From NCBI RefSeq assembly GCF_041248615.1, contig NZ_CP158426.1: a DNA stretch of 64,000 nt; one strand, given 5' to 3'. A model generated the notes under the pieces. It did not search any database. It was given only the letters and a program-made list of their open reading frames with translations, and had not been told where the DNA came from. Positions 1,356 to 60,779 of this stretch are shown in pieces; positions within the stretch are counted from its first letter, which is position 1; each line of letters begins with the position of its first letter. Source of the DNA: Escherichia coli. GTDB taxonomy: Bacteria; Pseudomonadota; Gammaproteobacteria; Enterobacterales; Enterobacteriaceae. The position numbers and the translations under genes are program-made.

Positions 1356-2264
1356 CTAATTCTGCTGTAAAAAGTGCAGAAACTGACTTAAAGCATAAGA
1401 AGGCGTTTCGTTATTGCGCCAGAACACACCGACGCTGCCTTTCTGTTCTATCTTTGGCAGGTTGAGGATCACCAGTTGTCCCTGGCTGGCATAACGTTGC
1501 GCCAGGCGTAATGACAAAATAGAGATCATATCGCTGCTTTGTAACAGGTTGGTACTGACGTTCATCGACGCCGACTCAATCGTGTTTTCTGGCAGCATCA
1601 CGCCGTGGTCTACCAGCGCATTATCAATACTGATGCGAATGGGGGTACCTGTCGGCCAGACTATCCACCGCCAGTTAGCAAGATCATTCCAACTGAGGGT
1701 GGCGTATTTCGCCAGTGGATGCTCAGCACGGGCGACAAAACACACCGGCTCGGTGTAGAGCACCTTATAATTCAGTGGCAGCTGCAAGGCGCGACCGCCA
1801 ATTCGCCCAACGACCACGTCGACAGAACCTGCCAACAGATCTTGCAGCAATGGGGTCATAACCTTCTCTTCAATATTCAGGTGTAGAGTTGGCATCTCCT
1901 TGAGCAAATGCAAAATCGCCTGGGATACGCAGTCAGTGGCGACGGGAGAACAGCCAATTTTCAGACTGCCGACCAGCCCACCTTGTTTAAAACGGGCCAG
2001 TTCATGTTGCGAGCGCTCCATGTCATTGATTAACCGCTGGGCATGTTGCAATAACAATCTACCGCCTTCGGTAGGGCGTAACCCTTTGCTGTGCCGCTCA
2101 AAGAGTGTGAGGCCGATCTCATCTTCGAGTTGTGACAACCATTTCGACAGCGCAGGCTGGGTGATATTCATCATCCGCGCGACATGGGTCAGATTGCCCT
2201 GTTCACCCAGCGCCACCAGCATTTGCAGGTGATGAAGCTTTAGTTTCTGCGCCCAGTTTGCCAT
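1356..2264 (-). CDS. mhbR: LysR-family transcriptional regulator, divergent from the catabolic operon (MhbR-like)
   Basis: N-terminal HTH (LKLHHLQMLVALGEQGNLTHVARMMNITQPALSKWL) followed by a LysR substrate-binding domain; divergent to the transporter gene; start set at Met17 of the ORF. Confidence 0.75.
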   Translation of the reverse strand: MANWAQKLKLHHLQMLVALGEQGNLTHVARMMNITQPALSKWLSQLEDEIGLTLFERHSKGLRPTEGGRLLLQHAQRLINDMERSQHELARFKQGGLVGSLKIGCSPVATDCVSQAILHLLKEMPTLHLNIEEKVMTPLLQDLLAGSVDVVVGRIGGRALQLPLNYKVLYTEPVCFVARAEHPLAKYATLSWNDLANWRWIVWPTGTPIRISIDNALVDHGVMLPENTIESASMNVSTNLLQSSDMISILSLRLAQRYASQGQLVILNLPKIEQKGSVGVFWRNNETPSYALSQFLHFLQQN

Positions 2265-2390
2265 TTGCCATAACCTCCAGGTTATCTCTCTGCCCGAAAT
2301 GCCATTGTACATTTCATCTCTTTAATCACAATATCGCAACATACATAAAACAAAAGAAACATCTACCTTACCTGCACTGAGGCATTTACT

Positions 2391-3749
2391 ATGACTCAAC
2401 GACGTGATTTACAAGCACTGATCGATGCTGCTCCGGTCGGCAAGATGCAGTGGCGCGTTATCATCTGCTGTTTTCTGGTGGTAATGCTCGATGGTTTAGA
2501 CACCGCGGCTATCGGCTTTATCGCCCCTGATATTCGCACTCACTGGCAACTCACCGCAGGCGATCTCGCCCCGCTTTTTGGCGCGGGTCTGCTGGGGTTA
2601 ACCGCAGGCGCACTGCTTTGTGGTCCGTTGTCCGATCGCTTTGGCCGCAAACGGGTGATTGAGCTGTGCGTCTTTTTGTTTGGCGCGTTAAGCCTCGCCT
2701 CGGCTTTCTCACCGGATCTGCAAACGCTGGTATTCCTGCGTTTCCTCACCGGCCTTGGGCTGGGTGGCGCGATGCCAAACACAATTACCATGACCTCGGA
2801 ATATCTGCCTGCCCGCCGCCGCGGCGCGCTGGTGACGCTGATGTTTTGCGGCTTTACCCTGGGTTCGGCGTTTGGCGGGATTGTCAGCGCGCAGCTGGTG
2901 CCGGTGATTGGCTGGCACGGGATCCTGGTGTTGGGTGGCGTATTACCGCTGATGCTGTTTGTTGCACTGCTGGTGGTTCTGCCGGAATCGCCACGCTGGC
3001 AAGTGCGCCGCCAGCTACCCCGGGCGGTGATTGCGAAAACCGTCAGCGCCATCACCCGCGAGCGTTATGTCGATACCCACTTTTATCTCATTGAATCAGC
3101 CTCCGTTACAAAAGGCAGCATTCGTCAACTGTTTATGGGGCGTCAGTTACCCATCACGTTGATGCTGTGGGTGGTGTTCTTTATGAGCTTGCTGATTATT
3201 TACCTGCTCTCAAGCTGGATGCCAACGCTGCTCAACCATCGCGGCATCGACCTGCAACATGCCTCCTGGGTTACCGCCGCGTTCCAGATTGGCGGTACGT
3301 TGGGCGCGCTGGCGCTGGGCGTGCTGATGGATAAGTTCAATCCTTTCCGCGTACTGGCGCTGAGCTATGCCATAGGCGCTGTATGCATCGTGATGATTGG
3401 CTTAAGCCAGGACGGATTATGGCTAATGGCGCTGGCGATTTTCGGCACCGGCATTGGCATCAGCGGATCGCAGGTGGGGCTGAATGCGCTGACCGCAACA
3501 CTTTATCCAACACAAAGTCGCGCCACGGGCGTGAGCTGGTCAAACGCCGTGGGCCGCTGCGGCGCGATTGTTGGCTCGCTGTCTGGCGGCGTGATGATGG
3601 CGATGAATTTCTCTTTCGACACCCTGTTTTTCATTATCGCTGTGCCCGCGGCGATCAGTGCGGTGATGTTAACCCTGCTGATCACCGTGGTTCGCCAGTC
3701 GACCTCTGTCCCTGACTCACTGCCTCACGCAGGTGTTGTGAACGAATAA
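2391..3749 (+). CDS. mhbT: MFS aromatic-acid transporter (3-hydroxybenzoate/gentisate type)
   Basis: 452 aa, about 12 TM segments, MFS signature motifs (GRKR after TM2); first gene of the catabolic operon. Confidence 0.8.
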
Positions 3750-3760
3750 GGAGCATCCCA

Positions 3761-4789
3761 ATGACTGATAACAATCAAAATAGCCGCGAGCAATTTTATC
3801 AGCATATTTCCGGGCAAAACCTGACCCCGCTGTGGGAGTCACTGCACCATCTGGTGCCAAAAACGCCCAACGCTAACTGTGCGCCAGCGTACTGGAATTA
3901 TCAGGAGATCCGCCCGCTGCTGCTGGAGAGCGGCAGCCTGATTGGCGCGAAAGAAGCCGTGCGCCGCGTGCTGGTGCTGGAAAACCCGGCGCTGCGCGGG
4001 CAGTCTTCCATCACCGCGACTTTATATGCCGGTTTGCAACTGATCATGCCGGGCGAAGTGGCACCGAGTCATCGCCATAACCAGTCGGCGCTGCGTTTTA
4101 TTGTTGAAGGTAAAGGGGCATTCACCGCCGTTGATGGCGAACGCACGCCAATGAATGAGGGCGATTTTATCCTGACTCCGCAGTGGCGCTGGCACGATCA
4201 CGGTAACCCTGGCGACGAACCGGTTATCTGGCTCGATGGGCTGGATCTGCCATTAGTGAACACTCTGGGCTGCGGTTTTGCCGAAGATTACCCGGAGGAG
4301 CAACAACCAGTAACGCGTAAAGAGGGCGATTACCTGCCGCGTTACGCTGCCAATATGTTGCCGCTGCGCCATCAGACCGGGAACTCCTCGCCCATCTTTA
4401 ACTACCGTTATGACCGTAGCCGCGAAGTGCTACACGATTTAACCCGCCTGGGCGATGCCGATGAGTGGGATGGCTACAAAATGCGCTACGTCAACCCGGT
4501 CACCGGTGGCTATCCGATGCCGTCGATGGGCGCTTTCCTGCAACTGCTGCCGAAAGGGTTTGCCTCACGCGTGGCGCGTACCACTGACAGCACCATCTAC
4601 CATGTAGTGGAAGGTAGCGGGCAGGTCACTATCGGCAATGAAACCTTCAGCTTTAGTGCAAAAGATATCTTCGTGGTGCCGACCTGGCACGGCGTGTCGT
4701 TCCAGACCACGCAAGATACCGTTTTATTTAGTTTTTCGGACAGACCGGTACAAGAAGCCCTGGGGCTGTTCCGCGAAGCGCGTTATTAA
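3761..4789 (+). CDS. mhbD: gentisate 1,2-dioxygenase (bicupin)
   Basis: 342 aa; cupin metal-binding His motifs ([11 protein letters not shown]...WHDHGN); operon context with fumarylpyruvate hydrolase and maleylpyruvate isomerase. Confidence 0.85.
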
Positions 4790-4804
4790 TTTGGGAGAGA
4801 GAAA

Positions 4805-5506
4805 ATGACTCAATACGTATTCGAACCACAAGCGCCCGTTACCGTACCGGTTGTTGGCAGTGATGAACAATTCCCCGTACGCCGCGTTTACTGCGTCGGA
4901 CGTAACTATGCCGCCCACGCCCGCGAAATGGGCTTTGATCCGGATCGTGAACCGCCATTCTTCTTCTGCAAACCGGCGGATGCCGTTGTTCCGGTTGCCG
5001 CTGGCGAAACGCTGGCGCTGCCGTATCCGGCGCAGACCGATAACTACCATTATGAAATTGAACTGGTGGTGGCGATTGGTAAAAAAGGCAGTGATATCCC
5101 GCTGGAAAACGCCCATGAATATGTCTGGGGTTATGCCACGGGTCTTGATATGACTCGCCGTGACCGTCAAATGGAAATGCGCCAGATGGGCCGCCCGTGG
5201 GAAATCGGCAAAGCGTTCGATCTCTCGGCCCCCATCGCGCCGCTGCACAAAGCCAGCGAAACTGGCGGTATTGATAACGCACCTATCTGGTTACAGGTTA
5301 ACGGCGAAGATCATCAGCGCAGCGATATTCGTCATCTCATCTGGTCAGTGAATGAAACCATCAGCTACCTGTCAGGCTTCTTTGAACTGCAACCGGGCGA
5401 TCTAATCTTTACCGGTACGCCGGAAGGGGTTGGCCCAGTAGTCAAAGGTGATGTGATCACGGGCAACGTCGAGGGCTTAACGCCTATCGCGGTGAAGATT
5501 GTCTGA
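4805..5506 (+). CDS. mhbH: fumarylpyruvate hydrolase (FAH family)
   Basis: 233 aa FAH-fold protein ([16 protein letters not shown]...GTPEGVG); position in gentisate operon. Confidence 0.8.
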
Positions 5507-5513
5507 GGTGATG

Positions 5514-6158
5514 ATGAAGCTGTACAGTTTTTTTAATAGTTCAGCGTCTTACCGGGTGCGCATTGCGCTGGCGCTGAAGGGTATCGATTACCAGACCGAA
5601 GGGGTGAATATCCGCATTGGTCAGCAAAACGAACTGGCCTACCGGCGGATGAATCCGGTCGGGCTGGTGCCGACGCTGCTGACCGACGAGGGCGAATCAC
5701 TCGGACAATCGCTGGCGATTATTGACTGGCTGGAGAGTCACTACCCGCAAGTTCCGCTGATGCCGCAGGAAGAACCGGCCCGCAACAAGGTGCTGGAAAT
5801 TGTCTATGCCATCGCCTGCGATATTCATCCATTGAATAACCTACGCGTGCTGCGCTACCTGACCGAAGAGCTGAACGTCAGTGAAGAAGATAAAAAACGC
5901 TGGTATGCGCACTGGATCCAGCAAGGGTTAAGCGCGGTGGAACAGCTACTGCGCCAGAGCCAGTCGGGGCAATTTTGTGTGGGCGAGACGCCGACGCTGG
6001 CAGATTGCTGCCTTGTTCCACAGTGGGCGAACGCGCTACGTATGAACTGCGATCTGAGCGGGTATCCGCGCTGCAAAGCGGTGTACGACGCCTGCACGCA
6101 GCTGCCAGCGTTCATTGCCGCAGCGCCAGAAAATCAACAAGATAAAATTTCAGCCTGA
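5514..6158 (+). CDS. mhbI: maleylpyruvate isomerase (glutathione S-transferase zeta-like)
   Basis: GST N-terminal thioredoxin-like fold (MKLYSFFNSSASYRVRIALALKGIDY); ORF begins at 5499 and overlaps the preceding gene, so start set at MKLYSF. Confidence 0.8.
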   Translation: MKLYSFFNSSASYRVRIALALKGIDYQTEGVNIRIGQQNELAYRRMNPVGLVPTLLTDEGESLGQSLAIIDWLESHYPQVPLMPQEEPARNKVLEIVYAIACDIHPLNNLRVLRYLTEELNVSEEDKKRWYAHWIQQGLSAVEQLLRQSQSGQFCVGETPTLADCCLVPQWANALRMNCDLSGYPRCKAVYDACTQLPAFIAAAPENQQDKISA

Positions 6159-6172
6159 CCAGGAGAACCATA

Positions 6173-7366
6173 ATGACTAAAGTGACACGCGCAGTAATTG
6201 TGGGAGGCGGGATCGGCGGTGCGGCAACTGCGTTGTCACTGGCCCGCCAGGGGATCAAAGTGGTGCTGCTGGAAAAGGCGCATGAGATCGGTGAGATTGG
6301 CGCAGGTATCCAGTTGGGGCCAAATGCGTTTTCGGCGTTGGATAGCCTCGGCGTCGGCGAAATCGCCCGCCAGCGCGCGGTATTCACCGATCACATCACC
6401 ATGATGGATGCGGTAAACGCCGAAGAAGTGGTGCGCATTGAAACCGGTCAGGCCTTTCGCGATCATTTCGGCGGCCCTTACGCGGTGATCCACCGGGTTG
6501 ATATTCACGCCTCGGTGTGGGAAGCGGTACTGACGCATCCGGACGTGGAATATCACACCTCCACCAACGTCGTGGATATTCGCGAGACAGAAGACGATGT
6601 CACCGTTTTCGACGATCGCGGCAATAGTTGGATCGGCGATATTCTGATTGGCTGTGACGGCGTGAAGTCAGTGGTGCGCCAGAGCTTATTGGGCGATGCG
6701 CCGCGTGTCACCGGGCATGTGGTCTACCGTGCGGTTATCGATTGTGCCGATATGCCGGAAGATTTGCGCATTAACGCACCAGTATTGTGGGCGGGGCCGT
6801 GCTGTCACTTGGTGCATTACCCTTTACGCGGCGGCAAGCAGTATAACCTGGTGGTGACATTCCACAGCCGCCAGCAGGAAGAGTGGGGCGTGAAGGATGG
6901 CAGTAAAGAGGAAGTGCTCTCTTACTTTGAAGGGATTCACCCCCGTCCGCGCCAGATGCTGGATAAACCGACCTCCTGGCGACGCTGGTCAACCGCCGAC
7001 CGTGAACCGGTAGCGAAGTGGGGAACGAAGCGCATTACGCTGGTGGGCGATGCGGCCCATCCGGTGGCGCAGTATATGGCGCAGGGTGCCTGTATGGCGC
7101 TGGAAGACGCGGTAACACTGGGTAAGGCGCTGGCGCAGTGTGAGGGTGATGCGGCACAAGCCTTTGCGCTGTATGAGTCGGTACGTATTCCGCGCACCGC
7201 GCGCATCGTCTGGTCGACCCGTGAAATGGGGCGGGTTTATCATGCCGCAGGAGTAGAGCGCCAGGTACGTAACCTGCTGTGGAAAGGGAAATCGCAGGCA
7301 GAGTTTTACCGCGGCATGGAGTGGCTGTACGGCTGGAAAGAAGATAACTGTTTGCAACCACGCTGA
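6173..7366 (+). CDS. mhbM: 3-hydroxybenzoate 6-hydroxylase (FAD-dependent monooxygenase)
   Basis: 397 aa; FAD-binding GxGxxG ([14 protein letters not shown]) and DG / GD flavoprotein monooxygenase motifs (GCDGVKS, GDAAH). Confidence 0.85.
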
Positions 7367-12757: not shown

Positions 12758-12930
12758 AAAGTTCTTTTGTGTTGCATTGCTGGCGTAAATGTCAGCAATG
12801 CAGCATTTCCTCACGATTCTCCTTTGACGATCGCACTTTTTGCTCGTTATGATGGCGTCGCTAGCCTCAGTAAATCCTTACTCCGGCGGTGCGCAACCCG
12901 TGCGCGTGAACCACTATCTGAATGCTCATC

Positions 12931-18258: not shown

Positions 18259-19176
18259 ATGCCACTCTCAAAGCTCTGGGCAGGTTCATTGGTTTTGTTG
18301 GCAGCCGTGAGCCTGCCGCTACAGGCGGCTTCCCCCGTTAAGGTTGGTTCAAAAATCGATACCGAAGGCGCGCTGCTCGGCAATATTATTTTGCAAGTGC
18401 TGGAAAGCCACGGCGTACCAACGGTCAATAAAGTGCAACTTGGAACGACTCCTGTGGTGCGCGGGGCGATCACTTCCGGTGAACTGGATATCTATCCGGA
18501 ATATACCGGCAATGGGGCGTTCTTCTTTAAAGATGAAAACGATGCTGCGTGGAAAAATGCCGGGCAAGGCTACGAGAAAGTCAAAAAGCTCGATGCAGAG
18601 CAAAACAAGTTAATCTGGCTGACGCCTGCGCCTGCAAATAACACCTGGACCATCGCCGTGCGTCAGGATGTGGCAGAGAAAAACAAACTCACTTCGCTTG
18701 CTGACCTGAGTCGTTATCTGAAAGACGGTGGCACCTTTAAACTGGCGGCCTCAGCAGAGTTTATCGAACGCGCCGATGCCTTACCCGCTTTTGAAAAAGC
18801 CTATGGCTTTAAGCTCGGTCAGGATCAGTTGCTTTCACTGGCTGGTGGCGACACGGCGGTGACGATCAAAGCCGCTGCCCAACAAACATCCGGCGTTAAT
18901 GCGGCGATGGCTTACGGCACTGACGGCCCGGTCGCGGCGCTGGGGCTGCAAACCTTAAGCGATCCGCAAGGCGTGCAACCTATCTACGCGCCTGCACCAG
19001 TGGTGCGTGAATCGGTGTTGAAGGAGTATCCGCAAATGGCACAGTGGCTACAGCCAGTCTTCGCCAGCCTCGATGAAAAAACATTGCAGCAACTGAATGC
19101 CAGCATTGCTGTGGAAGGACTGGATGCCAAAAAAGTGGCTGCCGACTACCTGAAACAAAAAGGGTGGACGAAGTAA
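18259..19176 (+). CDS. osmF: glycine betaine ABC transporter periplasmic binding protein
   Basis: 305 aa with signal peptide; first gene of a 4-gene ABC operon; matches recalled OsmF (YehZ). Confidence 0.9.
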   Translation: MPLSKLWAGSLVLLAAVSLPLQAASPVKVGSKIDTEGALLGNIILQVLESHGVPTVNKVQLGTTPVVRGAITSGELDIYPEYTGNGAFFFKDENDAAWKNAGQGYEKVKKLDAEQNKLIWLTPAPANNTWTIAVRQDVAEKNKLTSLADLSRYLKDGGTFKLAASAEFIERADALPAFEKAYGFKLGQDQLLSLAGGDTAVTIKAAAQQTSGVNAAMAYGTDGPVAALGLQTLSDPQGVQPIYAPAPVVRESVLKEYPQMAQWLQPVFASLDEKTLQQLNASIAVEGLDAKKVAADYLKQKGWTK

Positions 19177-19182
19177 TTTCCC

Positions 19183-20340
19183 GTGACTTATTTCCGTATT
19201 AATCCTGTTCTGGCGCTGCTGCTGTTGCTGACGGCAATCGCAGCGGCGCTGCCGTTTATCAGTTACGCGCCTAATCGTTTAGTTTCGGGTGAGGGGCGTC
19301 ATCTCTGGCAGCTGTGGCCGCAAACGATCTGGATGCTGGTGGGCGTTGGTTGCGCCTGGATGACAGCCTGTTTTATTCCCGCTAAAAAAGGCAGCATTTT
19401 TGCACTCATTCTGGCGCAATTCGTCTTCGTATTGCTGGTGTGGGGAGCAGGAAAGGCGGCGACACAACTGGCACAAAATGGCAGTGCGCTGGCGCGTACC
19501 AGCCTCGGCAGTGGTTTCTGGCTGGCTGCGGCGCTGGCATTGCTGGCCTGTAGTGATGCCATCCGCCGAATCTCCACGCATCCGCTGTGGCGCTGGTTGT
19601 TGCATATGCAGATTGCCATCATTCCGCTGTGGTTGCTGTACTCCGGCACGCTTAACGATCTCTCGCTAATGAAAGAATACGCCAACCGTCAGGATGTGTT
19701 TGACGACGCGCTGGCACAACATCTGACGTTGCTGTTTGGTGCGGTGCTGCCTGCGTTAGTGATTGGTGTGCCGCTGGGCGTCTGGTGCTACTTTTCCACT
19801 GCGCGGCAGGGGGCGATTTTTTCTCTGCTGAATGTCATTCAGACCGTGCCTTCGGTGGCGCTCTTTGGCCTGTTGATTGCGCCGCTTGCCGCACTGGTTA
19901 CGGCCTTTCCGTGGCTGGGTAAGCTCGGCATAGCAGGAACCGGAATGACACCCGCACTGATTGCGCTGGTGCTCTATGCCTTGCTGCCGCTGGTGCGCGG
20001 CGTGGTAGTCGGCTTGAACCAGATCCCGCGCGATGTGCTGGAGAGCGCCAGAGCGATGGGCATGAGCGGGGCGCAGCGATTCCTGCATGTTCAGTTACCG
20101 CTGGCGTTACCGGTATTTCTGCGTAGCCTGCGGGTGGTGATGGTGCAAACCGTCGGCATGGCGGTGATTGCGGCGTTAATCGGTGCAGGCGGTTTTGGGG
20201 CGCTGGTTTTCCAGGGGCTGCTAAGCAGCGCCATTGATTTAGTATTGCTGGGGGTGATCCCGGTAATTGTTCTGGCGGTGCTGATCGATGCGCTGTTCGA
20301 TTTGCTTATCGCACTGCTGAAGGTGAAACGTAATGATTGA
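19183..20340 (+). CDS. yehY: glycine betaine ABC transporter permease
   Basis: 385 aa multi-TM permease; 8-nt overlap with yehX. Confidence 0.85.
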
Positions 20341-21259
20341 ATTTAGCCATGTCAGCAAACTGTTCGGCGCACAAAAAGCCGTTAACGATCTCAATCTCAA
20401 TTTTCAGGAGGGGAGTTTTTCGGTGCTGATTGGTACATCAGGCTCCGGTAAATCCACCACTCTGAAAATGATTAACCGCCTGGTGGAGCATGACAGCGGC
20501 GTGATCCGCTTTGCCGGAGAAGAAATTCGCTCGCTGCCAGTGCTGGAGTTGCGCCGCCGGATGGGCTATGCCATTCAATCTATTGGCCTGTTTCCCCACT
20601 GGAGCGTGGCGCAAAACATCGCTACCGTGCCGCAATTACAAAAATGGTCACGGGCGCGGATCGACGATCGTATCGACGAATTAATGGCGCTACTGGGGCT
20701 GGAGCCAAATTTGCGTGAGCGTTATCCACATCAGCTTTCTGGCGGTCAGCAGCAACGTGTGGGAGTGGCGCGCGCACTGGCTGCCGATCCGCAAGTCTTA
20801 CTGATGGATGAACCTTTTGGCGCACTGGACCCGGTAACGCGCGGCGCGTTGCAACAAGAGATGACGCGCATTCACCGTTTGCTGGGGCGCACTATTGTGC
20901 TGGTCACTCATGATATTGATGAGGCGCTACGGCTGGCAGAACATCTGGTATTGATGGATCACGGTGAAGTGGTGCAGCAGGGCAATCCGCTGACGATGCT
21001 GACTCGTCCGGCAAACGATTTTGTCCGCCAGTTTTTTGGGCGCAGCGAACTGGGTGTCCGCCTGCTTTCGTTACGTAGTGTGGCGGATTACGTGCGTCGC
21101 GAAGAACGGGCAGAAGGTGAGGCACTGGCAGAAGAGATGACGCTACGCGATGCGCTCTCCCTGTTTGTCGCGCGGGGATGCGAGGTGCTGCCGGTGGTGA
21201 ACACGCAGGGCCAGCCTTGCGGCACGCTGCATTTTCAGGATCTGCTGGTGGAGGCGTAA
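20333..21259 (+). CDS. yehX: glycine betaine ABC transporter ATP-binding protein
   Basis: Walker [13 protein letters not shown] signature LSGGQQQRV, Walker B LLMDEP; 308 aa. Confidence 0.9.
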
Positions 21260-21263
21260 ACGT

Positions 21264-21995
21264 ATGAAGATGTTGCGCGATCCGCTGTTCTGGCTCATTG
21301 CTCTGTTTGTGGCGCTGATTTTCTGGCTGCCTTACAGCCAGCCGCTGTTTGCTGCCTTGTTCCCACAACTGCCACGACCCGTTTATCAGCAAGACAGTTT
21401 TGCTGCTCTGGCACTGGCTCATTTCTGGCTGGTGGGAATTTCGAGTTTGTTTGCGGTGCTCATTGGTACTGGTGCCGGAATTATTGTTACTCGCCCGTGG
21501 GGCGCGGAATTTCGCCCACTGGTGGAAACTATTGCCGCCGTTGGGCAGACTTTTCCGCCCGTTGCGGTGCTGGCGATTGCCGTTCCGGTGATTGGGTTTG
21601 GTCTGCAACCCGCGATTATCGCCTTGATCCTTTACGGTGTGCTGCCCATCCTGCAGGCGACACTTGCCGGGCTGGGAGCGATTGATGCCAGCGTGACAGA
21701 AGTTGCGAAAGGTATGGGAATGAGTCGAGGTCAGCGACTGCGTAAGGTCGAGCTACCGCTGGCGGCTCCGGTGATTCTGGCGGGCGTGCGAACTTCGGTG
21801 ATTATCAACATTGGTACGGCGACGATCGCCTCAACGGTAGGGGCCAGCACGCTGGGTACGCCCATCATCATCGGGCTTAGCGGATTTAATACCGCGTATG
21901 TGATCCAGGGGGCGTTACTGGTGGCACTGGCGGCGATCATTGCAGACCGCCTGTTTGAAAGGCTGGTGCAGGCGCTTAGCCAGCACGCAAAATAA
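21264..21995 (+). CDS. yehW: glycine betaine ABC transporter permease
   Basis: 243 aa multi-TM permease, last gene of the operon. Confidence 0.85.
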
Positions 21996-22083
21996 AGGTA
22001 TAACCTGCGAGCATGACGCCACCAATTCCGCCTAACGCCATAAACAGGAACAGGGCGATGACCCCAATTTTAGCTATGCGCAT
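21976..22083 (-). CDS. yohO: 35-aa small membrane protein
   Basis: manual translation gives [35 protein letters not shown] (recalled YohO); its 3' end overlaps the yehW 3' end convergently. Confidence 0.8.
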
Positions 22084-22142
22084 AATGCACTCCTTATGTT
22101 AACGAAAGGATTGTACAGTAAAGCGCATTTGTTAACGAATCA

Positions 22143-22874
22143 TTAAATGCCGAGTGGGAAAATATCATGGCCTTGTTCCTGCCAACTGGTGAGTTGCTGC
22201 TGTTGGGCGGAGGTTCGATTTTCACCGCACCACACCAGCAATGTACGGCCTTCGAACAGTTCAGGGCGTAGTTGATTGAGCGAGTGGGCGAGGACATCAA
22301 TGCGCCATCCTTGTTGACTGGCAATCCAGCCCTCTAGCCACAGACGGGTGGTATCATGAATATTCCAGCCAACTACCAGCGCATCTTTACCCTGTTTTTT
22401 ACGCGCCGAAGCCAGACAAATGGCGATGTAGTTGATCAGTACGCCGTCGAGGATCGCCAGCAGCGCCTGGAGAGTCGGTTGTTGGCACTGAAGTCGTCGG
22501 CGCAGAGGAATAAACAGATGCGTGGTGAGTGTCTGGGCGGGGTAATCCTGACCGCGCTCTTTGATCCACGTTCGCAGGCTATGCAGATTGCCGCTTTGCA
22601 GGTAAGTCAGTAATGTTTCTTGCTGATCGCGCCAGCCGTTCTGCACATCAACATTTTCATTACTGAGCAGCATTTTAACTTTGCTGACCTGCACGCCGTT
22701 GTCGATCCAGCGTTTGATCTCGCGGATCCGGTCAATATCGGCATCATTGAACAGCCGATGACCGCCGTCTGTCCGTTGCGGTTTCAGCAATCCGTAACGC
22801 CTCTGCCACGCGCGTAACGTGACAGGGTTAATATCACAAAGCAACGCCACTTCACCAATTGTGTAAAGCGCCAT
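22143..22874 (-). CDS. mlrA: MerR-family transcriptional regulator (activator of csgD)
   Basis: N-terminal MerR HTH (YTIGEVALLCDINPVTLRAWQRRYGLL); 243 aa. Confidence 0.9.
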   Translation of the reverse strand: MALYTIGEVALLCDINPVTLRAWQRRYGLLKPQRTDGGHRLFNDADIDRIREIKRWIDNGVQVSKVKMLLSNENVDVQNGWRDQQETLLTYLQSGNLHSLRTWIKERGQDYPAQTLTTHLFIPLRRRLQCQQPTLQALLAILDGVLINYIAICLASARKKQGKDALVVGWNIHDTTRLWLEGWIASQQGWRIDVLAHSLNQLRPELFEGRTLLVWCGENRTSAQQQQLTSWQEQGHDIFPLGI

Positions 22875-33146: not shown

Positions 33147-33576
33147 ATATTCATCCCTGAAATGTATTAATGAAATAAACGATATTTTACGCGCAATAAA
33201 TGTTTGGCGCATTAGTTGTTTGAGCGAAAAATATCTGGAAAGCAGATCACAGTAAATAAAAAAACCTGCTGGTGAGGCAGGTTCTTTTATTTACTACAGT
33301 GACGCTAACTTGCTGATTGTGCAACATTTCGTACCAACGAATAAATTATAACCATATCCACACTCCATTGCAATTCAGTGAATGAGATTTATAATCCTGC
33401 CCGTTGGGAGGTTGTGCCGGATCGGACCAATTTTAAGTCCTGGCTGCTGGACGGGTGGTGCCGCAGGCGGTGCCCTGATCCGGAGAGCAACGTTTCGTAC
33501 CAACATACGTAAACCAGTATCGACAGGCAGTGTAAGGGTAAGGTGCTGGTGTTGCGCTCCTTAATAAGGAGAGCGG

Positions 33577-34085: not shown

Positions 34086-37000
34086 TTAATGGAAAATGAC
34101 GTCGGGTGCGCTTAACGCCTCACTCAAATCAAACACATCAAGTTCGGCAAAAGTGACGGATTTATTCTCACGGTATACATGAAGAGAACGGAAGCTCATT
34201 AGCGCTTTGCTATCAACATTGTAGTGGTTAAAACCGGATGAAAACTTAAGGACCAGCCGGTACTCGCCCAAGTCATAGACAAATGCGTTCTCATAGCCTG
34301 ACTCCCAGCCTTTGTATCGCAATCCCATAAGTTGCCCAACGGTAGCAGATTTACCTTCCCAGCGATTCAAACTATTACTGGCTGACTCGTCAGGCGTGAG
34401 CAGCACCGTGCGGCGCGACAATTGGCGAAAAGGCGACATAATTTCGTAATCGGCAAAAAGCTGTGCAAATTCACTGCGCATTTCTGCTGTCATTTCTAAC
34501 GGGTGGGCAATGCCAATCAGAGCATCGGCAGGCAGGTCAATTGGCTCATCTTGCTCATTGCAGAACTCCCCCTCAGCGGCCACACGAAAGGCGTTGAGTA
34601 AACAACGCGGTTCATTTGCCGGATAAACACCCCATATCAATCGCTGAGTAACCAGGCGGGTAAAGGGATGATTAATAAACAGAGAATGAAAATCTGCCAG
34701 CGACCAGCGTCGGGTGGTGCGCAGGGCAGTTTCAAGACGCGGGAGCAGGTTTTTGCTCACCTGAGTAGCATCTTTTTTTAGCCCTTTTAGTCGGGCCAGT
34801 GCCTCGGGTGCTTTCAGTTGATCGTCATCGGCGCGCAACCGGGGAACGCTTTTCTGGCGAACGTTTTGCTGATCAAAGATAACCGGGTTGAGGTTTTCAT
34901 CGAAGCGAACGGTAAATTGCCGTGGACCAAAATCAAAAATCAACGCCTGCGGATCATCAAGACCCAGTGTTGGGACTAATCTGTCCGCTAACTGTTCCTG
35001 GCTTAGCCCGCGATTTTCTGCGACCACCTGAAGAAATTCCGCCGCGTTATCACGTAAGGGGCGGGATTTCGCCCGTTGCGATATATGATGCAGCTGCATC
35101 AGCGCCATATCATTATTCATCAGGGTAAGGATGTTCAGGCCACTGACAGCACGGGCAGATTTGCCTTCTTGTGGCCAGGCGAGGATCTGTGTCGTTAGAT
35201 CCCGTGTCGTGCTTTCGTCACCAAAGAGACTTAACGCCAGAAATGCCCAGTTGTCTTTTGCGGGGGCACCAGCTTGTTGCCACGCAGTGAAGAGATCCCA
35301 GGCAAAAGCTGCCAGCGTTTGTGGCTGGCAGAACGTTTTCAGTTGTTCCAGCCCGCTATAAAAACGTCCGCCTTGGGTAAAGCGCAGCATTTCGCCGATA
35401 ATTTCCAGAGCGTCATCGGTAACAGGCTGATTATTTGTGATAAGGCGCGGCCTGGACCGCATTTGCGGCTGCCAGAAATCAGGGGCTTTTGGAATGCGTG
35501 TCGGGTAAATCTCTATTGGACTCTGTTTAAGTAATTGCTCCAGGGCAGGCCATACATCTGTACGCTGCCAGCGGTTTGCCACGGTTTGCAGTAACTCGCC
35601 ATGTCCCTGTTCGTAAAGTAAACGCAGGGCAAGTAATGCAGCTTCGCTATTATCGCTGGATTTGGTGAAGACAAGAGGGATAAGTGCAGTAGCTGTATGT
35701 TCCGGCCAATGTAAAATCCACTGGCGAGCCAGATCACGCTGCGCCGCGAAACGTCGCCAGACGCGGGCAACGGGCAGGGCCAGTTCTGTTGCGCCAAAAT
35801 TTAAAATTAACGGAAATGTTTCTTTTGGACGATGTGAAAAAGCCAACAGCAGACCTGGTAGAGCATCCAATCCGAAGATACTGAGAAAATAGTCCTCACC
35901 CGCAGACAGATGCTTTTTCTCATTGATACGTAGCCAGAAAGTCAAAGCCATCTCACGCGGCAACTGCGCCAATAAATACAGGTTCCAGATACTCTTTTCC
36001 CGACGATAGCGTGAGTAGCTGTCATTTTCCCATATGTTAATGAACACTTCTACGTGACCGTTGCGAAGCGCCTGTTCTGCTAATTGAGCTTCCGGGGAGC
36101 TCCAGCCATTCATGATCTCTTCAACCCGCCCTGGGTAGTAATGCCACTGAACAATGAGTGAATTGCGTGCAGCATCCAGTTTTCCGGGGAGTATATAATT
36201 CAAAAACAGCCATACATCATCTCCAAAACCCAGCTCCTGTAATACAACTCGTCCACTTTTTTGTTCCATGCGTTCCGCAAGAGATTCCGTGCTGAAATAA
36301 CGGGCAGACTCAGTGGCGGCAAGCCTCTCTTGTTCGCCTGGTTGCCAGTAAACTTGCGGGGTTAATTCGAGCGGTGCCAAATCAAGACGTGGAGCTGTCA
36401 TTTTTTTCTTACTACGCCACGGTGGTGAAACGAGGATTTCAGGCAGATTGCTGTTATCGGTGCCATCAATAACCGGTTTGGGCGGTGCCGATAAATAACT
36501 ATTCAGCACTGCCCGGGCTTGAGTACTTAACCACGGCATCACTTCTGCTGCCAGTTGTGGCTGCGATGCCATCAGCGTTTGTAACAGCGTACGCCAGTAT
36601 TCATCACGTGCTTTTTGCTGTGCAGGCAGCTTTTTGTCTTCGATGATTGGATAACCAGGGCGCGTAGGTGGTTCTTTTAGCGCCAGCAGTTCTGCCAGTG
36701 CGGCAAGCGTCGCATGGGGGAAATTTTTACTGTATTTAGCTACACGTTGCAGGCTGGGTTTGTTTTTATCAGCAACTAACAGCAGGGTGCGGATGACCTG
36801 CGGATGGTTAATTTGTACCAGCAGACTGCCGCAATCTTCTTTATGGGCATACATTGCCAGGCGTGGAACGGCTGCCAGTCCTTGTTCGCGCAAAAGGGCA
36901 GCGCAGGCCGCGTAGCCGAAGTGGTTTTCATGCGACATGTAGCTGGCTTCCCGATCGCTAAATATATCCTGGCTCCAGTAGCGTTCGAGTTTTCTCACCG

Positions 37001-37718
37001 CTCTGGGGTCAATAGCAACAACTTTTAACCACTCCTTAGAATGAAAATGAGTCCACGGGCATTCAAGGCTTACCAACTCATTGGCGATTTCTGGTTTTTC
37101 CGGGAGGATCAGAGCAATAAAAGGGCGGCGAACTTTGGTTATTCCTGGCAGTGCGGCAATGAGTTTGTCGGCGCAACGCTGCCAGCTGCTTTCCTCTGCC
37201 AGAGAGAGATGCTTACGCAGTCGGAGATCGAATTCGTTATAGGTTTCTGATCGATAACCATAGCCATAATCCTCGTTCTGATACTGCAATGTCACTAGCA
37301 GAGGATCACTTTCATAACATCGTGTAATAAACTGGCGTGCAATCACCACCTCAGTCGCATATTCCAGTCCCTCTTGTTGGACGATTTCGTCGAGCAACTG
37401 TTGGCTATCATTTTGCGCGATACAGGCTAGCGCCGCCATTGTCCGGGCCGGAACTGAGGGTTTGTGTTCGCCAATCAAGTTGATGGCCTGCGTAATGGCC
37501 GACTGCCACTCCAGTGAAAAATTATCATAACGCCAGACAATGTTTTTTTTCTTCTCAGCTTTTTGTAGCAATTCATCACCCAGTGTCTGGATGAGGCTTT
37601 CAGTGATAACAGGCACCGGTTCGCCCGGCCAACTGCGATGGCTGAGCGGCGTTTTGCCTTTTTTATATTTCAGTTCCACTTGGGCGTTATCCGCCAGCCA
37701 CGGTAATTCCTTGTCCAT
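34086..37718 (-). CDS. yehI: 1210-aa DUF4132-family protein, paralog of MolR
   Basis: long ORF; C-terminal region clearly paralogous to the next gene (FAWDLFTAWQ.AGAP.K..WAF; LFADYE...PFRQL). Confidence 0.85.
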   Translation of the reverse strand: MDKELPWLADNAQVELKYKKGKTPLSHRSWPGEPVPVITESLIQTLGDELLQKAEKKKNIVWRYDNFSLEWQSAITQAINLIGEHKPSVPARTMAALACIAQNDSQQLLDEIVQQEGLEYATEVVIARQFITRCYESDPLLVTLQYQNEDYGYGYRSETYNEFDLRLRKHLSLAEESSWQRCADKLIAALPGITKVRRPFIALILPEKPEIANELVSLECPWTHFHSKEWLKVVAIDPRAVRKLERYWSQDIFSDREASYMSHENHFGYAACAALLREQGLAAVPRLAMYAHKEDCGSLLVQINHPQVIRTLLLVADKNKPSLQRVAKYSKNFPHATLAALAELLALKEPPTRPGYPIIEDKKLPAQQKARDEYWRTLLQTLMASQPQLAAEVMPWLSTQARAVLNSYLSAPPKPVIDGTDNSNLPEILVSPPWRSKKKMTAPRLDLAPLELTPQVYWQPGEQERLAATESARYFSTESLAERMEQKSGRVVLQELGFGDDVWLFLNYILPGKLDAARNSLIVQWHYYPGRVEEIMNGWSSPEAQLAEQALRNGHVEVFINIWENDSYSRYRREKSIWNLYLLAQLPREMALTFWLRINEKKHLSAGEDYFLSIFGLDALPGLLLAFSHRPKETFPLILNFGATELALPVARVWRRFAAQRDLARQWILHWPEHTATALIPLVFTKSSDNSEAALLALRLLYEQGHGELLQTVANRWQRTDVWPALEQLLKQSPIEIYPTRIPKAPDFWQPQMRSRPRLITNNQPVTDDALEIIGEMLRFTQGGRFYSGLEQLKTFCQPQTLAAFAWDLFTAWQQAGAPAKDNWAFLALSLFGDESTTRDLTTQILAWPQEGKSARAVSGLNILTLMNNDMALMQLHHISQRAKSRPLRDNAAEFLQVVAENRGLSQEQLADRLVPTLGLDDPQALIFDFGPRQFTVRFDENLNPVIFDQQNVRQKSVPRLRADDDQLKAPEALARLKGLKKDATQVSKNLLPRLETALRTTRRWSLADFHSLFINHPFTRLVTQRLIWGVYPANEPRCLLNAFRVAAEGEFCNEQDEPIDLPADALIGIAHPLEMTAEMRSEFAQLFADYEIMSPFRQLSRRTVLLTPDESASNSLNRWEGKSATVGQLMGLRYKGWESGYENAFVYDLGEYRLVLKFSSGFNHYNVDSKALMSFRSLHVYRENKSVTFAELDVFDLSEALSAPDVIFH

Positions 37719-52519: not shown

Positions 52520-52600
52520 AACCAAACGACTCGGGGTGCCCTTCTGCGTGAAGGCTGAGAAATACCCGTATCACCTGATCTGGATAATGCCAGCGTAGGT
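52520..52600 (+). ncRNA. TPP riboswitch aptamer (thi-box) of the thiM leader
   Basis: AACCAAACGACTCGGGGTGCCCTTCTGCGTGAAGGCTGAGAAATACCCGTATCACCTGATCTGGATAATGCCAGCGTAGG matches the recalled E. coli thiM TPP aptamer; similarity ends at about 52600. Confidence 0.85.
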
Positions 52601-52654
52601 TGCCAACATTCTGATTAGTATTCATGTGGTTACATTTCTTTTTGTCCGTGTGTA

Positions 52655-53986
52655 ATGCACCTAATGTACAAAAAGAGCGTAAACATGAGGTACAAAACTC
52701 TTCCATACACGTTTCAAAGAAACGGTAATTACTATCTACAGATTCGGCTTTCGAATGGTCGGATGTATAAAAAATCACTTCTCACTGACAGCTATCGTGA
52801 AGTCTCTGCTTTGATGATTGGTGTTGCTCCGTACATTCCTTTTGTTAAATCATTAGCCATCACAATCCCGATGTTTGATGCCTTTGTTTCAAACCTGATT
52901 ATGTCAAAACTTAGGGCTGTAAAAGTTCCGCTGCTATCACATCAGTCGGTAATTACCCCTGCTACATTCGAGGAACCAGCGACACAAGCCGAACCGCAAA
53001 ACATGCTAACTCTTTCTGATGCGTGGGCTATGTATAAAGCGGAAAAGGGTAAAACATGGACAAAGTCGATCTCAAGGGCGAATGAGCGTTACATGGAAGT
53101 CTTGATGGTTGTCTTGGGAGAGACAACTGACGTAGTTGCGATTTCTAAGCAGGACATCAAGCAGGTGATGGAAGTTGTTGAGAATTTGCCTAAGCGTGTT
53201 GTCCAACCGTATCGCTCAATGAACATCCAGCAACTGATTGAATGTGATGATGTATCACCGAATGAGTTAGTAGGAGTGGAAGCCATTCATAAGCATCTCA
53301 AAATCTACAAATCGCTTTTCAAGACTTTTCTAACAGAAAACAAAGATATTTTGATTAAATCCCCAACTGATGGGGTAGTAGCAGCACCATCTAAAGCAAG
53401 GTTTGGAGCATACAGTTCGGCGGAGATGAAGAAGTTTGTAGAGTGGGCACTTAAGCAGCCAGATGGCTGGCAGAAGTGGATAACATTGTTGTTGGCATAC
53501 ACAGGAGCCAGAAGGGGAGAAATTGCCAAACTGGAAAAATCACAAATAAAATATGATGAGGATAGCCATCGGTATTATTTCCTGATTGCAGAAGGAGGGC
53601 AGGGGAAAACCGAAAATGCTACCCGACAAGTAGTGATACACCCTAAGTTGATCGAATGGGGTTTCATGGAATACGTTGATCGCCAGTGGAAAGAACGGAT
53701 TTTTTCAGAAGTGGCTGGTACAAACATGACGAAGATCGGTAAAGAATTTGCTGATGTGCGTGACCAGCTTGACATTCCGTACTTAGACGATTTTGGACAG
53801 CGGAGGCTTTTGCATAGCATTCGTCATTCTGTTTGCTCTACTGCGATGGCTGGATGGGTAAAGAACATCTTGCATCTGCAACAAACAGTAGGCCATGAGA
53901 AAAGTGGAGGGATCACTAAACGCTACTTACATACGTTCCCACTATCATCAATTTGTTATGTTATTGATGGGATTAGTTGGGTCTGA
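52655..53986 (+). CDS. tyrosine-type site-specific integrase (island integrase)
   Basis: C-terminal catalytic box LHSIRHS...GH...Y (R-H-R-Y tyrosine recombinase motif); true start may be the Met at 52685. Confidence 0.75.
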   Translation: MHLMYKKSVNMRYKTLPYTFQRNGNYYLQIRLSNGRMYKKSLLTDSYREVSALMIGVAPYIPFVKSLAITIPMFDAFVSNLIMSKLRAVKVPLLSHQSVITPATFEEPATQAEPQNMLTLSDAWAMYKAEKGKTWTKSISRANERYMEVLMVVLGETTDVVAISKQDIKQVMEVVENLPKRVVQPYRSMNIQQLIECDDVSPNELVGVEAIHKHLKIYKSLFKTFLTENKDILIKSPTDGVVAAPSKARFGAYSSAEMKKFVEWALKQPDGWQKWITLLLAYTGARRGEIAKLEKSQIKYDEDSHRYYFLIAEGGQGKTENATRQVVIHPKLIEWGFMEYVDRQWKERIFSEVAGTNMTKIGKEFADVRDQLDIPYLDDFGQRRLLHSIRHSVCSTAMAGWVKNILHLQQTVGHEKSGGITKRYLHTFPLSSICYVIDGISWV

Positions 53987-54203
53987 AACTGCTAAGAATG
54001 ATAGGAAAAGCTACTTAATGATCCTTAGTTTTGGATGAAATTGAAGATTACAAAGATCTTGAGCGAATAAGAGCGTTTTTTAATCAAAAAAGCCATAAAA
54101 ACTTTTCTTGACTGTATATTAACACAGTGCTTCTACTATGTAGAAGAAATCGACATGAAAAATTTGATATGGTAAATTTTATCCATGATAACAAAAAGGT
54201 ATT

Positions 54204-55106
54204 GTGGATATGTTACTACCAATACGAGTTCATAAACGATTTCTAACTTTATTTAAGACTTTGCAAATTGACGATTGCCCACCGCAATCAACTTTAAATA
54301 TTCATGTACTTAATATCGAAAGCAATGAATTTATATACTGTAAATTAGTTGAAGAATTACGTGACATAATAATTACTTATGTACATTCGAATAGAAGGCT
54401 TGAGGAGTTTAAGGAAAGTTATCCTTCGTATAGCCCTAAACCTTTTTTCGAAGCAATACAAAAATTTCGCAATTATACGTCAAACGAAGGTGAGTTAGGT
54501 GAACTGCTTTTATACGCTTTTCTTGAAACAGGACTAAATGCTCCGAAATTACTTTCCAAAATGCAATTGAAAACAGATTCTAATGATTACATTAAGGGTT
54601 CTGATGGTGTACATCTGTTAGAATTAGATGATGGTTATCAATTAATATTTGGAGAATCAAAGCTCTATGCCGATCTTTTAGAAGGTGCTCGAGAAGCGTT
54701 TGATTCTATTTTAGATTTTAAAAGTAATGGAATGGCATTTGAAAGAGGGCTGATAGATACACACGTTATAAATGAAATGGTTTCAGAAGAAGGTTATGAG
54801 AAAATAAAATCAATTCTTCTTCCTTCTTCTGGCGATGATGGGCCAGATCTTGATTTATCCTTTGGTATATTTCTTGGTTTTGAATTGAAAATAGATAGCT
54901 CACAGTTATCATTGAAAAACAAAGAGTTTAGAGATTGGGTTAATGAGTCCGTGAAACAACATGCTACTCGCGTGGTCAGTACGATACGAAGGAAAATTAT
55001 TAATCATAAATTATATGGTCACGAATTCCACATATATATAGTTCCTTTTACCGATATTGATGTTACACGAAAAAAATTAATTCATGAAATGCTAACAATT
55101 AAGTGA
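54204..55106 (+). CDS. PD-(D/E)xK-like putative nuclease, HamA-like (Hachiman-type effector candidate)
   Basis: 300 aa; motif ELDDGYQLIFGESK (D...ExK); stop overlaps the start of the downstream helicase gene by 4 nt; low GC, island context. Confidence 0.5.
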   Translation: MDMLLPIRVHKRFLTLFKTLQIDDCPPQSTLNIHVLNIESNEFIYCKLVEELRDIIITYVHSNRRLEEFKESYPSYSPKPFFEAIQKFRNYTSNEGELGELLLYAFLETGLNAPKLLSKMQLKTDSNDYIKGSDGVHLLELDDGYQLIFGESKLYADLLEGAREAFDSILDFKSNGMAFERGLIDTHVINEMVSEEGYEKIKSILLPSSGDDGPDLDLSFGIFLGFELKIDSSQLSLKNKEFRDWVNESVKQHATRVVSTIRRKIINHKLYGHEFHIYIVPFTDIDVTRKKLIHEMLTIK

Positions 55107-57691: not shown

Positions 57692-57697
57692 AACTGC

Positions 57698-57727
57698 CGA
57701 ATCAGAGTCTTTTATTGATTCTGATTC
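57698..57727 (+). terminator. hairpin downstream of the helicase gene (no clear U-tract)
   Basis: CGAATCAGA-(loop)-TCTGATTCG. Confidence 0.35.
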
Positions 57728-57999
57728 GCACTTATATAGTTAAATCAAAAGGAGCATTAAAATTTTTCAGTAGCGATTTAGTATGCTAAATCGCTGCATA
57801 ACGAATCTGCTTCTAAATCTTGATTAAGTGTTTCGAACTGCCTTGATTGTTTATTGCTACACTTTATAATTAATCGCAACACACAAAACAATACAATGTA
57901 GGCAGTTGCACAGAATTAATTACAGGCACATTATGGATATCGAGAGGATTCGAACAGTTTTAAACTGCAAGCCCTTTGACTTTATCCCCTCCTACTATA

Positions 58000-58575
58000 T
58001 CAGCGTTTGATGCCGCTAATACTGGCAAGCATTTCTTTCTTCACACGAAAAACTGTAGCCCTGCCGCAATCACATAACTTTGCTATCTCGTCTGGTGTAT
58101 TCTTCCCGGCCTGTAACATATCGATAATCTTGTTATGTAGCTCTTTGTTCTTTTGCTTGCCCTTGTACTTCTTAGCCTCTTTAGCAAGAGCAATCCCCTC
58201 ATTGCGACGAGATGCGATCATACCCCGCTCAAATTCTGCAGCGGCTCCCATCATGGTTAGGATAAGGCGTGATTGTGGGGAATTATCAAAACTCATAGAG
58301 TTTGCAAGGAATTGAACAGTGATTCCACGAGCCACGAGGTTATCAATCATTTCCAGCAAATCGCGGGTATTACGTGCAAGGCGATCAATCGAGTGAGTAA
58401 CGAGCGTGTCACCTTCGCGGAGGTGTGAAAGCAGGTTCAACAATTCAGGTCTTTCGCTGGTGGACTTACCTGATTCTTTCTCTGCCACAATTTTGTCACA
58501 AACAGGTTCCAGCACTGCCAACTGACGCTCAAGATTTTGATCCTTTGTTGAGACTCTCGCGTAACCAAAAATCAT
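58000..58575 (-). CDS. serine recombinase (resolvase/invertase family)
   Basis: N-terminal catalytic domain MIFGYARVSTKDQ with catalytic Ser, C-terminal HTH; 191 aa. Confidence 0.85.
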   Translation of the reverse strand: MIFGYARVSTKDQNLERQLAVLEPVCDKIVAEKESGKSTSERPELLNLLSHLREGDTLVTHSIDRLARNTRDLLEMIDNLVARGITVQFLANSMSFDNSPQSRLILTMMGAAAEFERGMIASRRNEGIALAKEAKKYKGKQKNKELHNKIIDMLQAGKNTPDEIAKLCDCGRATVFRVKKEMLASISGIKR

Positions 58576-58589
58576 TTTCCTGCCCTCAC

Positions 58590-58665
58590 TTACGTGAAAA
58601 GTATCATTTGAATTTACTTAATGATACAGTATCATTTAAATGCATTCAACATCTAAATGATACTA
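58590..58665. promoter_or_regulatory. res-like recombinase binding site (imperfect inverted repeats) upstream of the serine recombinase gene
   Basis: repeated TATCATTT(A/G)AAT half-sites in inverted orientation (GTATCATTTGAAT...ATGATACA; TATCATTTAAATG...ATCTAAATGATAC). Confidence 0.5.
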
Positions 58666-59485: not shown

Positions 59486-59528
59486 TTTAATTCCTTATTA
59501 AAGAACAGTACATTATATTTCAATGGAC

Positions 59529-60569: not shown

Positions 60570-60779
60570 CGCAATTATCCTTTAATAATTTTCCAAATCG
60601 ATGGTTCGTTCTATTTGTATTATCGACAATAATTCGTTTGCCTTTAGGTAGATCCCTTAAAAAGGAATCCCCCCAAAATTTATAGATTAGCAGTTGTACC
60701 ACTCTCACTGTTTTGTCACTCCCATTATCTTCTCTCAGGTCAAAAGTACGGACTTAAAGCCGTCCGTGTTCAGGTGCTC

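Follow-up and report, generated by a model that had tools for sequence, protein, structure and literature searches.

A phase-locked convergent overlap between the coding sequences of yohO and yehW in Enterobacteriaceae

There are a number of described systems with which a pair of convergent, overlapping genes can be compared. Tail-to-tail overlapping genes share a short stretch at their 3' ends, with each stop codon embedded in the other gene, and the common convergent overlaps are of 4 nt. Several small membrane proteins of Escherichia coli, KdpF, AcrZ, MgtS, and CydX, bind transporters. They are enterobacterial proteins of about 30-50 amino acids with a single transmembrane helix, and their genes adjoin a transporter operon. 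Overlap at the level of the transcript has been surveyed with ExcludonFinder, and 165 convergent excludons were listed for E. coli MG1655, each of them seen in no fewer than half of the 58 transcriptomes (NAR 2025, PMC12288877). Excludon pairs in general showed higher synteny than control pairs in that survey. A functional excludon is defined by reciprocal expression and by RNase III processing. For transcripts that end by the action of Rho, the general rule is trimming as far as a protective stem-loop (Dar and Sorek, 2018, PMC6061677). Such ends have a stem-loop that lacks a U tract, the 3' end immediately after it, and C-rich, bicyclomycin-sensitive RNA downstream. Bidirectional intrinsic terminators, as outlined by Ju et al. 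(2019), are found between convergent genes with little or no spacing.

The pair formed by yohO and yehW of E. coli is itself listed among the 165 convergent excludons. The two genes are tail-to-tail neighbours on opposite strands and their transcripts overlap, which is unavoidable because the coding sequences overlap. This goes beyond the typical convergent excludon, where the transcripts overlap at their 3' ends; here 20 nt of coding sequence are shared in addition to the untranslated regions. The match to a functional excludon is one of geometry only. Compared with the common convergent overlaps, that of yohO and yehW is longer, it is in a phase that has no doubly silent sites, and it is kept in all genera sampled. 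YohO is like KdpF, AcrZ, MgtS, and CydX in size, in its single helix, and in its position beside a transporter operon, but yohO lies on the strand opposite that operon.

The window is a stretch of 64,000 nucleotides of E. coli (contig NZ_CP158426.1, assembly GCF_041248615.1), and the locus within it is osmF-yehY-yehX-yehW / yohO / mlrA / btsS-btsR. The genes osmF, yehY, and yehX (annotated at 18259..21259, plus strand) precede the terminal gene of the operon, yehW, which is found at 21264..21995 on the plus strand, encodes 243 amino acids, and ends with a TAA at 21993-21995. The product of the operon is a glycine betaine ABC transporter according to the EcoCyc summary, which cites Lang 2015, and osmF is one of the RpoS-dependent core genes. 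yohO occupies 21976..22083 on the minus strand, begins with ATG, encodes 35 amino acids, and also ends with TAA. Its same-strand upstream neighbour, mlrA (22143..22874, minus strand), is separated from it by 59 nt. For both yohO and yehW, the list of open reading frames and the RefSeq annotation agree. The preliminary description had named these two genes, had placed a 35-codon yohO on the minus strand against yehW on the plus strand, and had counted by hand an overlap of about 20 nt. The names are borne out by the family match given below and by RefSeq, the strands and lengths are as given, and the overlap, calculated from the coordinates of the reading frames, is exactly 20 nt (21976..21995, both strands). 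RefSeq annotates identical coordinates in E. coli isolate 362 (NZ_OW967178.1), whose sequence around the locus is 100% identical, and among 5426 complete E. coli genomes a 1.9-kb query that spans the locus found a match in 5425. No other pair among the seven annotated convergent pairs in the window overlaps; the remaining six are separated by gaps of 38-372 nt.

On the yehW side, the overlap runs from base 2 of codon L238 through S239, Q240, H241, A242, and K243 to the stop codon. On the yohO side, it holds the last two bases of F30, then I31, L32, R33, A34, G35, and the stop codon. The start coordinates of both genes are multiples of three and thus positions 1, 2, and 3 of the yehW codons stand opposite positions 1, 3, and 2 of the yohO codons. 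In this arrangement there is no base that wobbles in both genes. The pair, its overlap, the 3' end of yohO, the excludon class, and the idea of a regulatory link are already in public records, since the annotation, the Term-seq end, and the excludon listing are all public. What is added here is that the overlap is universal and phase-locked over the approximately 20 genera sampled, that it follows yehW and not mlrA, and that the constraint on it is set by the 35-residue YohO and not by the tail of the transporter. The overlap has little importance outside the annotation of E. coli. It does provide a clean natural test case for the regulatory effect of a conserved convergent coding overlap, and its conservation offers one lead to the function of YohO.

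An open reading frame of this size proves nothing in itself, because 3 kb of this region contain 47 open reading frames of at least 20 amino acids. Chance frames similar in size to yohO are thus abundant, and no family was matched by YohO in a profile search of the Pfam copy used. Both observations would fit yohO as a chance reading frame and the overlap as an artefact of annotation. That reading is hardly credible. YohO matches the NCBIfam profile NF010225, 'protein YohO', with 80.1 bits against a cut-off of 57, and residues 1-35 align with positions 1-35 of the profile. The match is full-length and above the curated cut-off, which places the protein in the UPF0387/YohO family. Precomputed hits for a collection of contigs also assign PF27791 (UPF0387_membrane) to YohO orthologues. 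The protein is hydrophobic, 35 amino acids long, and single-pass; in 87 loci it is 34-37 amino acids long, and it has the single hydrophobic helix and the conserved core expected of the family. In 82 distinct orthologous DNA sequences of yohO, the entropies at codon positions 1, 2, and 3 were 0.60, 0.25, and 1.21, respectively, and in the core codons 14-28 they were 0.29, 0.05, and 1.11. Residues G19, G22, V23, M24, L25, G27, and Y28 are invariant in these 82 sequences. The protein has been seen by top-down mass spectrometry (PMC12529367) and the gene by ribosome profiling in the correct frame (bioRxiv 10.1101/2020.05.05.079178). The latter source cites Hemm 2008 for YohO being membrane-bound. 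The chance reading frame is refuted by the family match, the mostly third-position substitutions, the reading frame that is intact in nearly every locus, and the published detection by mass spectrometry and ribosome profiling. yohO evolves as a coding sequence and is a real gene.

The conservation of the overlap was explored through a scan anchored on MlrA, with one genome per species, which gave 80 loci. The set includes 18 named genera: Escherichia, Citrobacter, Salmonella, Silvania, Enterobacter, Leclercia, Lelliottia, Phytobacter, Kosakonia, Pluralibacter, Pseudenterobacter, Yokenella, Huaxiibacter, Buttiauxella, Cedecea, Pseudescherichia, Atlantibacter, and Franconibacter. Eight further loci brought the set to 88, and two more (L092-L093) to 90 loci in about 20 genera. 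The order mlrA, yohO, and convergent yehW was found in all 80 of the anchored loci. yohO is intact in 79 of these and in 87 of the 88. In the one exception, L008, it is disrupted by one additional T within a run of T, which is probably a sequencing error. The overlap is 20 nt long in 42 of the 88 loci, 26 nt in 41, 23 nt in four, and 17 nt in one. These lengths differ by whole codons and the phase is therefore the same throughout. In the larger set, the overlap is present, with the codon phase constant, in 90 of 90 related loci. Thus, the overlap is ancient and phase-locked.

The gene upstream of yohO is not as constant. In loci L082-L085 it is metG or a regulator with an HTH_5 domain, and in loci L086-L089 it is a TonB-dependent receptor adjoining an enterochelin esterase; the 20-nt overlap with yehW is retained in both groups. 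In the last two loci, L092-L093, there is no mlrA, yohO is divergent from btsS, and the overlap is 26 nt. Since it is kept with metG, the regulator, the TonB receptor, or btsS upstream, the overlap goes with yehW and not with mlrA. What is conserved as a unit is yohO together with the 3' end of yehW; mlrA lies outside of it. A search with YohO of 1.8 billion representative proteins returned 17 clusters, most of which were frameshifted or fused calls of yohO itself; divergent representatives came from Mangrovibacter and Shimwellia blattae, the genomes that hold loci L082-L089. A search for homologues of YehW returned relatives that were all at least 78% identical and within the clade that bears yohO.

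The constraint within the overlap can be explored through the sequences in the two larger length classes. The 21 distinct DNA sequences of the 26-nt class encode three YohO tails and 19 YehW tails. The 22 distinct sequences of the 20-nt class encode eight YohO tails and 16 YehW tails. Among pairs of sequences, differences that are silent in YohO and change YehW numbered 516 in the 26-nt class, compared with 80 that change YohO and are silent in YehW, and in the 20-nt class the corresponding numbers were 499 and 265; such pairwise counts are phylogenetically non-independent, but the direction is clear. The wobble bases of yohO are opposite the second codon bases of yehW, with the result that synonymous changes in yohO alter the tail of YehW. 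The C-terminus of YohO (FILRAG or FIVRGGVG) is protected, and YehW drifts over its final 6-8 residues. These drifting residues are at the extreme end of the permease domain, as the Pfam BPD_transp_1 match covers residues 68-239 of YehW. Selection within the overlap chiefly guards the C-terminus of YohO and not the tail of YehW.

yohO has signals of its own. A Shine-Dalgarno sequence, AAGGAG, is found at 22090..22095 on the minus strand, 6 nt before the ATG, with no more than one mismatch in 88 of 88 loci. A -10-like hexamer, TACAAT, at 22110..22115 on the minus strand, belongs to a predicted promoter. It is TATAAT in most genera; the exact TATAAT was found in 63 of the 88 loci, and 87 have at most one mismatch. 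In 84 of the 88 loci, with five upstream gene contexts among them, the hexamer ends at a distance of 25-28 nt from the ATG. A conserved -10 at a fixed distance in five contexts points to a promoter that belongs to yohO. From the sequence, transcription would start near 22103, and the leader would be approximately 20 nt long. A scan of the yohO strand with a promoter consensus found no sigma-70 site, because the -35 is poor. No entry near yohO was found in the published Cappable-seq supplement. A weak peak in sigma SELEX data lies within yehW and is uninformative. In E. coli, yohO may also be co-transcribed with mlrA, since the 59-nt gap between these genes contains no terminator.

The preliminary description had proposed that the 3' ends of both transcripts be mapped by Term-seq, and for yohO such an end is already published. 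The dominant 3' end is at MG1655 position 2215813 on the plus strand (Adams 2021, eLife, PMC7815308, Supplementary file 1), where it is classed as 'primary' for yohO and 'antisense' for yehW. The 61-nt flank of this position aligns, with a single mismatch, to the minus strand of the window at 21977..21917, which places the 3' end at 21917. The 3' untranslated region of yohO (21917..21975, minus strand) is thus 59 nt long and wholly antisense to yehW codons. Supplementary file 1, which covers three growth conditions, has three entries for yohO; two of these have scores of 861 and 1115, which are assigned to LB at OD 0.4 and OD 2.0, respectively, from their position in the list only. The lists of the same study contain no 3' end in the yehW sense. 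Supplementary file 2 gives a region of Rho termination in the yohO sense at 2215995, with a Rho score of 5.64 and p = 9.4e-16 (PMC7815308). In the window this bicyclomycin-sensitive region is at 21735 on the minus strand, 182 nt beyond the mapped 3' end and about 240 nt downstream of the stop codon of yohO. The RNA that follows the stop codon is rich in C and poor in G, as is expected of rut-like RNA, with C:G ratios of 1.27-1.47. In 50-nt windows at 21751-21677, near 21735, the counts of C and G were 20:7 and 18:7.

A stem-loop, GGCGGUC-UGCAAU-GAUCGCC, is found at 21932..21951 on the minus strand. It has a 7-bp stem, is not followed by a U tract (the sequence after the stem is GCCAGUGCCACCAGU), and lies 15 nt 5' of the mapped end. 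It is probable that this stem-loop blocks exonuclease trimming. In its lack of a U tract before the 3' end, and in the C-rich, bicyclomycin-sensitive RNA downstream, the end of yohO is like those of Dar and Sorek (PMC6061677). It differs in two respects: the stem-loop is inside the coding sequence of another gene, with a stability that does not exceed that of shuffled sequences, and 15 nt separate its inner stem from the 3' end, which in the rule follows immediately. The folding z-score is -0.29, which is not beyond that of shuffled sequence. Its conservation is moderate: in 84 sequences, 78% of the cells in the stem are paired, and the five inner pairs are formed in 64-84 of the 84, with covariation that is barely above that of shuffles. 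A comparison of the strands gave 54 cells of the G-U type and 44 of the A-C type, with no asymmetry, and the mean folding energies are -7.5 kcal/mol for the yohO strand and -7.8 kcal/mol for the yehW strand. Selection on the stem-loop in the yohO RNA was rejected on the basis of the z-score, the weak covariation, and the equivalence of the strands. Without a strand asymmetry, the stem-loop is best taken as incidental to the yehW codons for A-A-I...D-R.

No intrinsic terminator was found for either gene by a scan. Between 21900 and 22150, where an A/U-flanked, GC-rich hairpin that could serve as a bidirectional terminator was sought, there was no site on the plus strand. The only hit on the minus strand, at 22066-22051, is inside the yohO coding sequence and is dependent on G-U pairs, and the number of hits was not above that expected from shuffled sequence. 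A terminator for yehW was also sought at 21996-22145; none was found, and the folded structure in that interval was not significant. A search with Rfam gave no match at the yohO/yehW locus. The two genes resemble the pairs that share a bidirectional terminator (Ju et al., 2019) in being convergent with little or no spacing, but they have no A/U-flanked hairpin, and the termination of yohO is associated with Rho. The preliminary description had proposed that the two genes could be coupled, in termination or in expression, by their convergent overlap. This finds partial support, limited to the geometry of the transcripts, with the 3' end of yohO inside yehW and the pair listed as an excludon. 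A shared or bidirectional terminator was not found.

The most probable explanation, with a probability of about 0.72, is that a gene for a small membrane protein, with its own signals, is convergent on the last gene of osmF-yehYXW and that the overlap is kept by dual coding. Transcripts of yohO run into yehW, as the published ends show, and would be terminated by Rho about 240 nt past the stop codon. The RNA would then be trimmed in the 3'-to-5' direction as far as the stem-loop, leaving the 3' end of yohO that is seen at steady state. As this end is 59 nt inside yehW, the yohO RNA would always be antisense to at least 79 nt of the yehW mRNA. Transcription in the yehW sense probably continues across yohO, because there is no recognisable terminator. 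The geometry of a convergent excludon would permit reciprocal interference, possibly through collision of polymerases or cleavage by RNase III. The persistence of the overlap is most likely due to dual coding under a dominant YohO constraint, which is hard to reverse, rather than to function as a switch.

A different reading takes the overlap for a true excludon, that is, for a selected switch. yohO and osmF-yehYXW would repress each other and be expressed exclusively, by polymerase collision together with RNase III cleavage of the duplex, and the overlap would be conserved for this reason. The pair is in the excludome of E. coli, where excludon pairs are more syntenic than controls, the overlap is universal in the 90 loci, and the yohO transcript necessarily extends over at least 79 nt of yehW. 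Also in its favour, the osmF operon is dependent on RpoS, whereas yohO has a -10 of the housekeeping type. However, the dual-coding constraint explains the conservation equally, and the tail of YehW drifts freely. The two Term-seq scores of yohO, 861 and 1115 in the order given above, are of the same order, with no later drop of the kind that strong exclusion in stationary phase predicts. The stem-loop does not appear to be under selection on the yohO strand, and the literature searched gave no sign that yohO and osmF-yehYXW are expressed reciprocally or in a coupled way. A selected switch is thus doubtful, and retention through dual coding is the preferred reading. It is quite unlikely that YohO is an accessory or inhibitory transmembrane peptide of OsmF-YehYXW and that the overlap ensures the joint inheritance of the two. 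In its favour, yohO is joined to the 3' end of yehW in all genomes examined, with any upstream gene. The invariant core of YohO, MA(I/L)..., resembles a small-residue helix-packing motif, and several small membrane proteins of E. coli (KdpF, AcrZ, and MgtS) do bind transporters. The linkage is no evidence of a shared function, though, because co-inheritance is forced by the overlap alone. The genes are on opposite strands and hence are not co-transcribed, which would be one mark of an accessory small protein, and literature searches found no interaction or phenotype data for YohO. A selected device that unites the two ideas, in which YohO modulates the OsmF-YehYXW importer while the dual-coding and antisense overlap locks the genes together and makes their expression reciprocal, is decidedly improbable.

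It can also be considered that YohO is a hydrophobic peptide like a type I toxin, and that antisense RNA from the convergent operon restrains it. YohO is hydrophobic and has 35 amino acids, the convergent transcript covers the 3' part of its gene, and a genuine type I system (OrzO-P RNA) is present elsewhere in the window. Type I systems combine a small antisense RNA of their own with repressed translation of a toxic peptide, and at this locus neither such an RNA nor an Rfam antitoxin RNA was found. The Shine-Dalgarno sequence of yohO is strong, its -10 conforms to the consensus, and YohO has been detected in cells growing normally. In contrast to the usual type I toxin gene, yohO is a single-copy gene that keeps its synteny and its sequence over the approximately 20 genera sampled. 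A toxin is therefore extremely unlikely here, and the data are better served by a small membrane-protein gene with its own signals.

One further element is possibly among those signals. A conserved 15-bp palindrome with the consensus TTAATGnnnCATTAA is found at 22132..22146, 16 nt 5' of the -10 hexamer, where it overlaps the stop codon of mlrA. It has no more than two mismatches in 76 of the 88 loci, and the 16-nt spacer to the -10 is kept in 65. The palindrome also occurs in Shimwellia, where mlrA is not adjacent. It is a candidate site for a regulator.

A conserved 15-bp palindrome with the consensus TTAATGnnnCATTAA is located 16 nt upstream of the -10-like hexamer of yohO, at window 22132-22146, and overlaps the stop codon of mlrA. 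It is retained with two mismatches or fewer in 76 of the 88 loci from the conservation survey. Shimwellia, where mlrA is not adjacent, is among these 76. The palindrome looks like a putative regulator binding site.

The promoter predicted for yohO is possibly independent of mlrA. In Citrobacter portucalensis (survey locus L016, 4733-4931), an insertion of about 140 nt separates mlrA from yohO. Both the -10-like TACAAT and the Shine-Dalgarno sequence are retained downstream of this insertion, which argues for a yohO promoter that would not depend on mlrA. Another variant locus is found in Escherichia sp. MOD1-EC7003 (L002:4880-5100), where an in-frame fusion at an EGALL repeat joins the 5' end of osmF to the 3' end of yehW. 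This removes most of the transporter operon, and yohO and its 20-nt overlap with yehW are still intact.

The labels of two survey records can be questioned. The record titled Chryseobacterium sp. 18061 (L055) contains a typical Enterobacteriaceae mlrA-yohO-yehW locus that is the same as that of Citrobacter sp. 18056 (L054) in YohO sequence, overlap length, and spacing. Judging from this match, the L055 assembly is probably mislabelled or contaminated. The sequence of L009, which is labelled as an uncultured Raoultella MAG, is Citrobacter-like.

A 3' end within mlrA was identified by Term-seq at MG1655 position 2214904, 48 nt past the A of the mlrA ATG (Adams et al., 2021; PMC7815308). It coincides with a terminator-like hairpin with a T-rich tail that was found by the terminator scan at 22870..22848; the published end and the hairpin together occupy window 22826-22870 on the minus strand. 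This could represent premature termination or attenuation of mlrA.

There are other RNA elements represented in the window. An OrzO-P antitoxin RNA (Rfam RF02083, 88.8 bits) is located at 33258-33331 on the minus strand, with yehL on one side and a hypothetical gene on the other. Its presence indicates a zor-orz type I toxin-antitoxin locus that is absent from the window's CDS annotation table. A Peptidase-S11 RNA motif (RF03039, 72.8 bits) is present directly upstream of pbpG, at 12846-12926 on the plus strand.

An inserted island at 52520-63942 contains genes for an integrase, HamA and a DEAD/DEAH helicase, a recombinase, a second helicase, and hypothetical proteins. The HamA and DEAD/DEAH helicase pair is Hachiman-like and would serve in defence. 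The island is flanked by two TPP riboswitches upstream of thiM, both annotated in RefSeq. Thus, integration appears to have duplicated the thiM leader. Of the two riboswitch copies, only the first (52522-52617) meets the Rfam gathering threshold.

Between yohJ and dusC, a gentisate pathway cluster (1356-7366) encodes a LysR regulator, MhbT, GtdA, a fumarylacetoacetate hydrolase, MaiA, and a 3-hydroxybenzoate 6-monooxygenase. The cluster is accessory and is not known from K-12. In addition, the annotation of the source strain lists yehI (34086-37716) as a frameshifted pseudogene.
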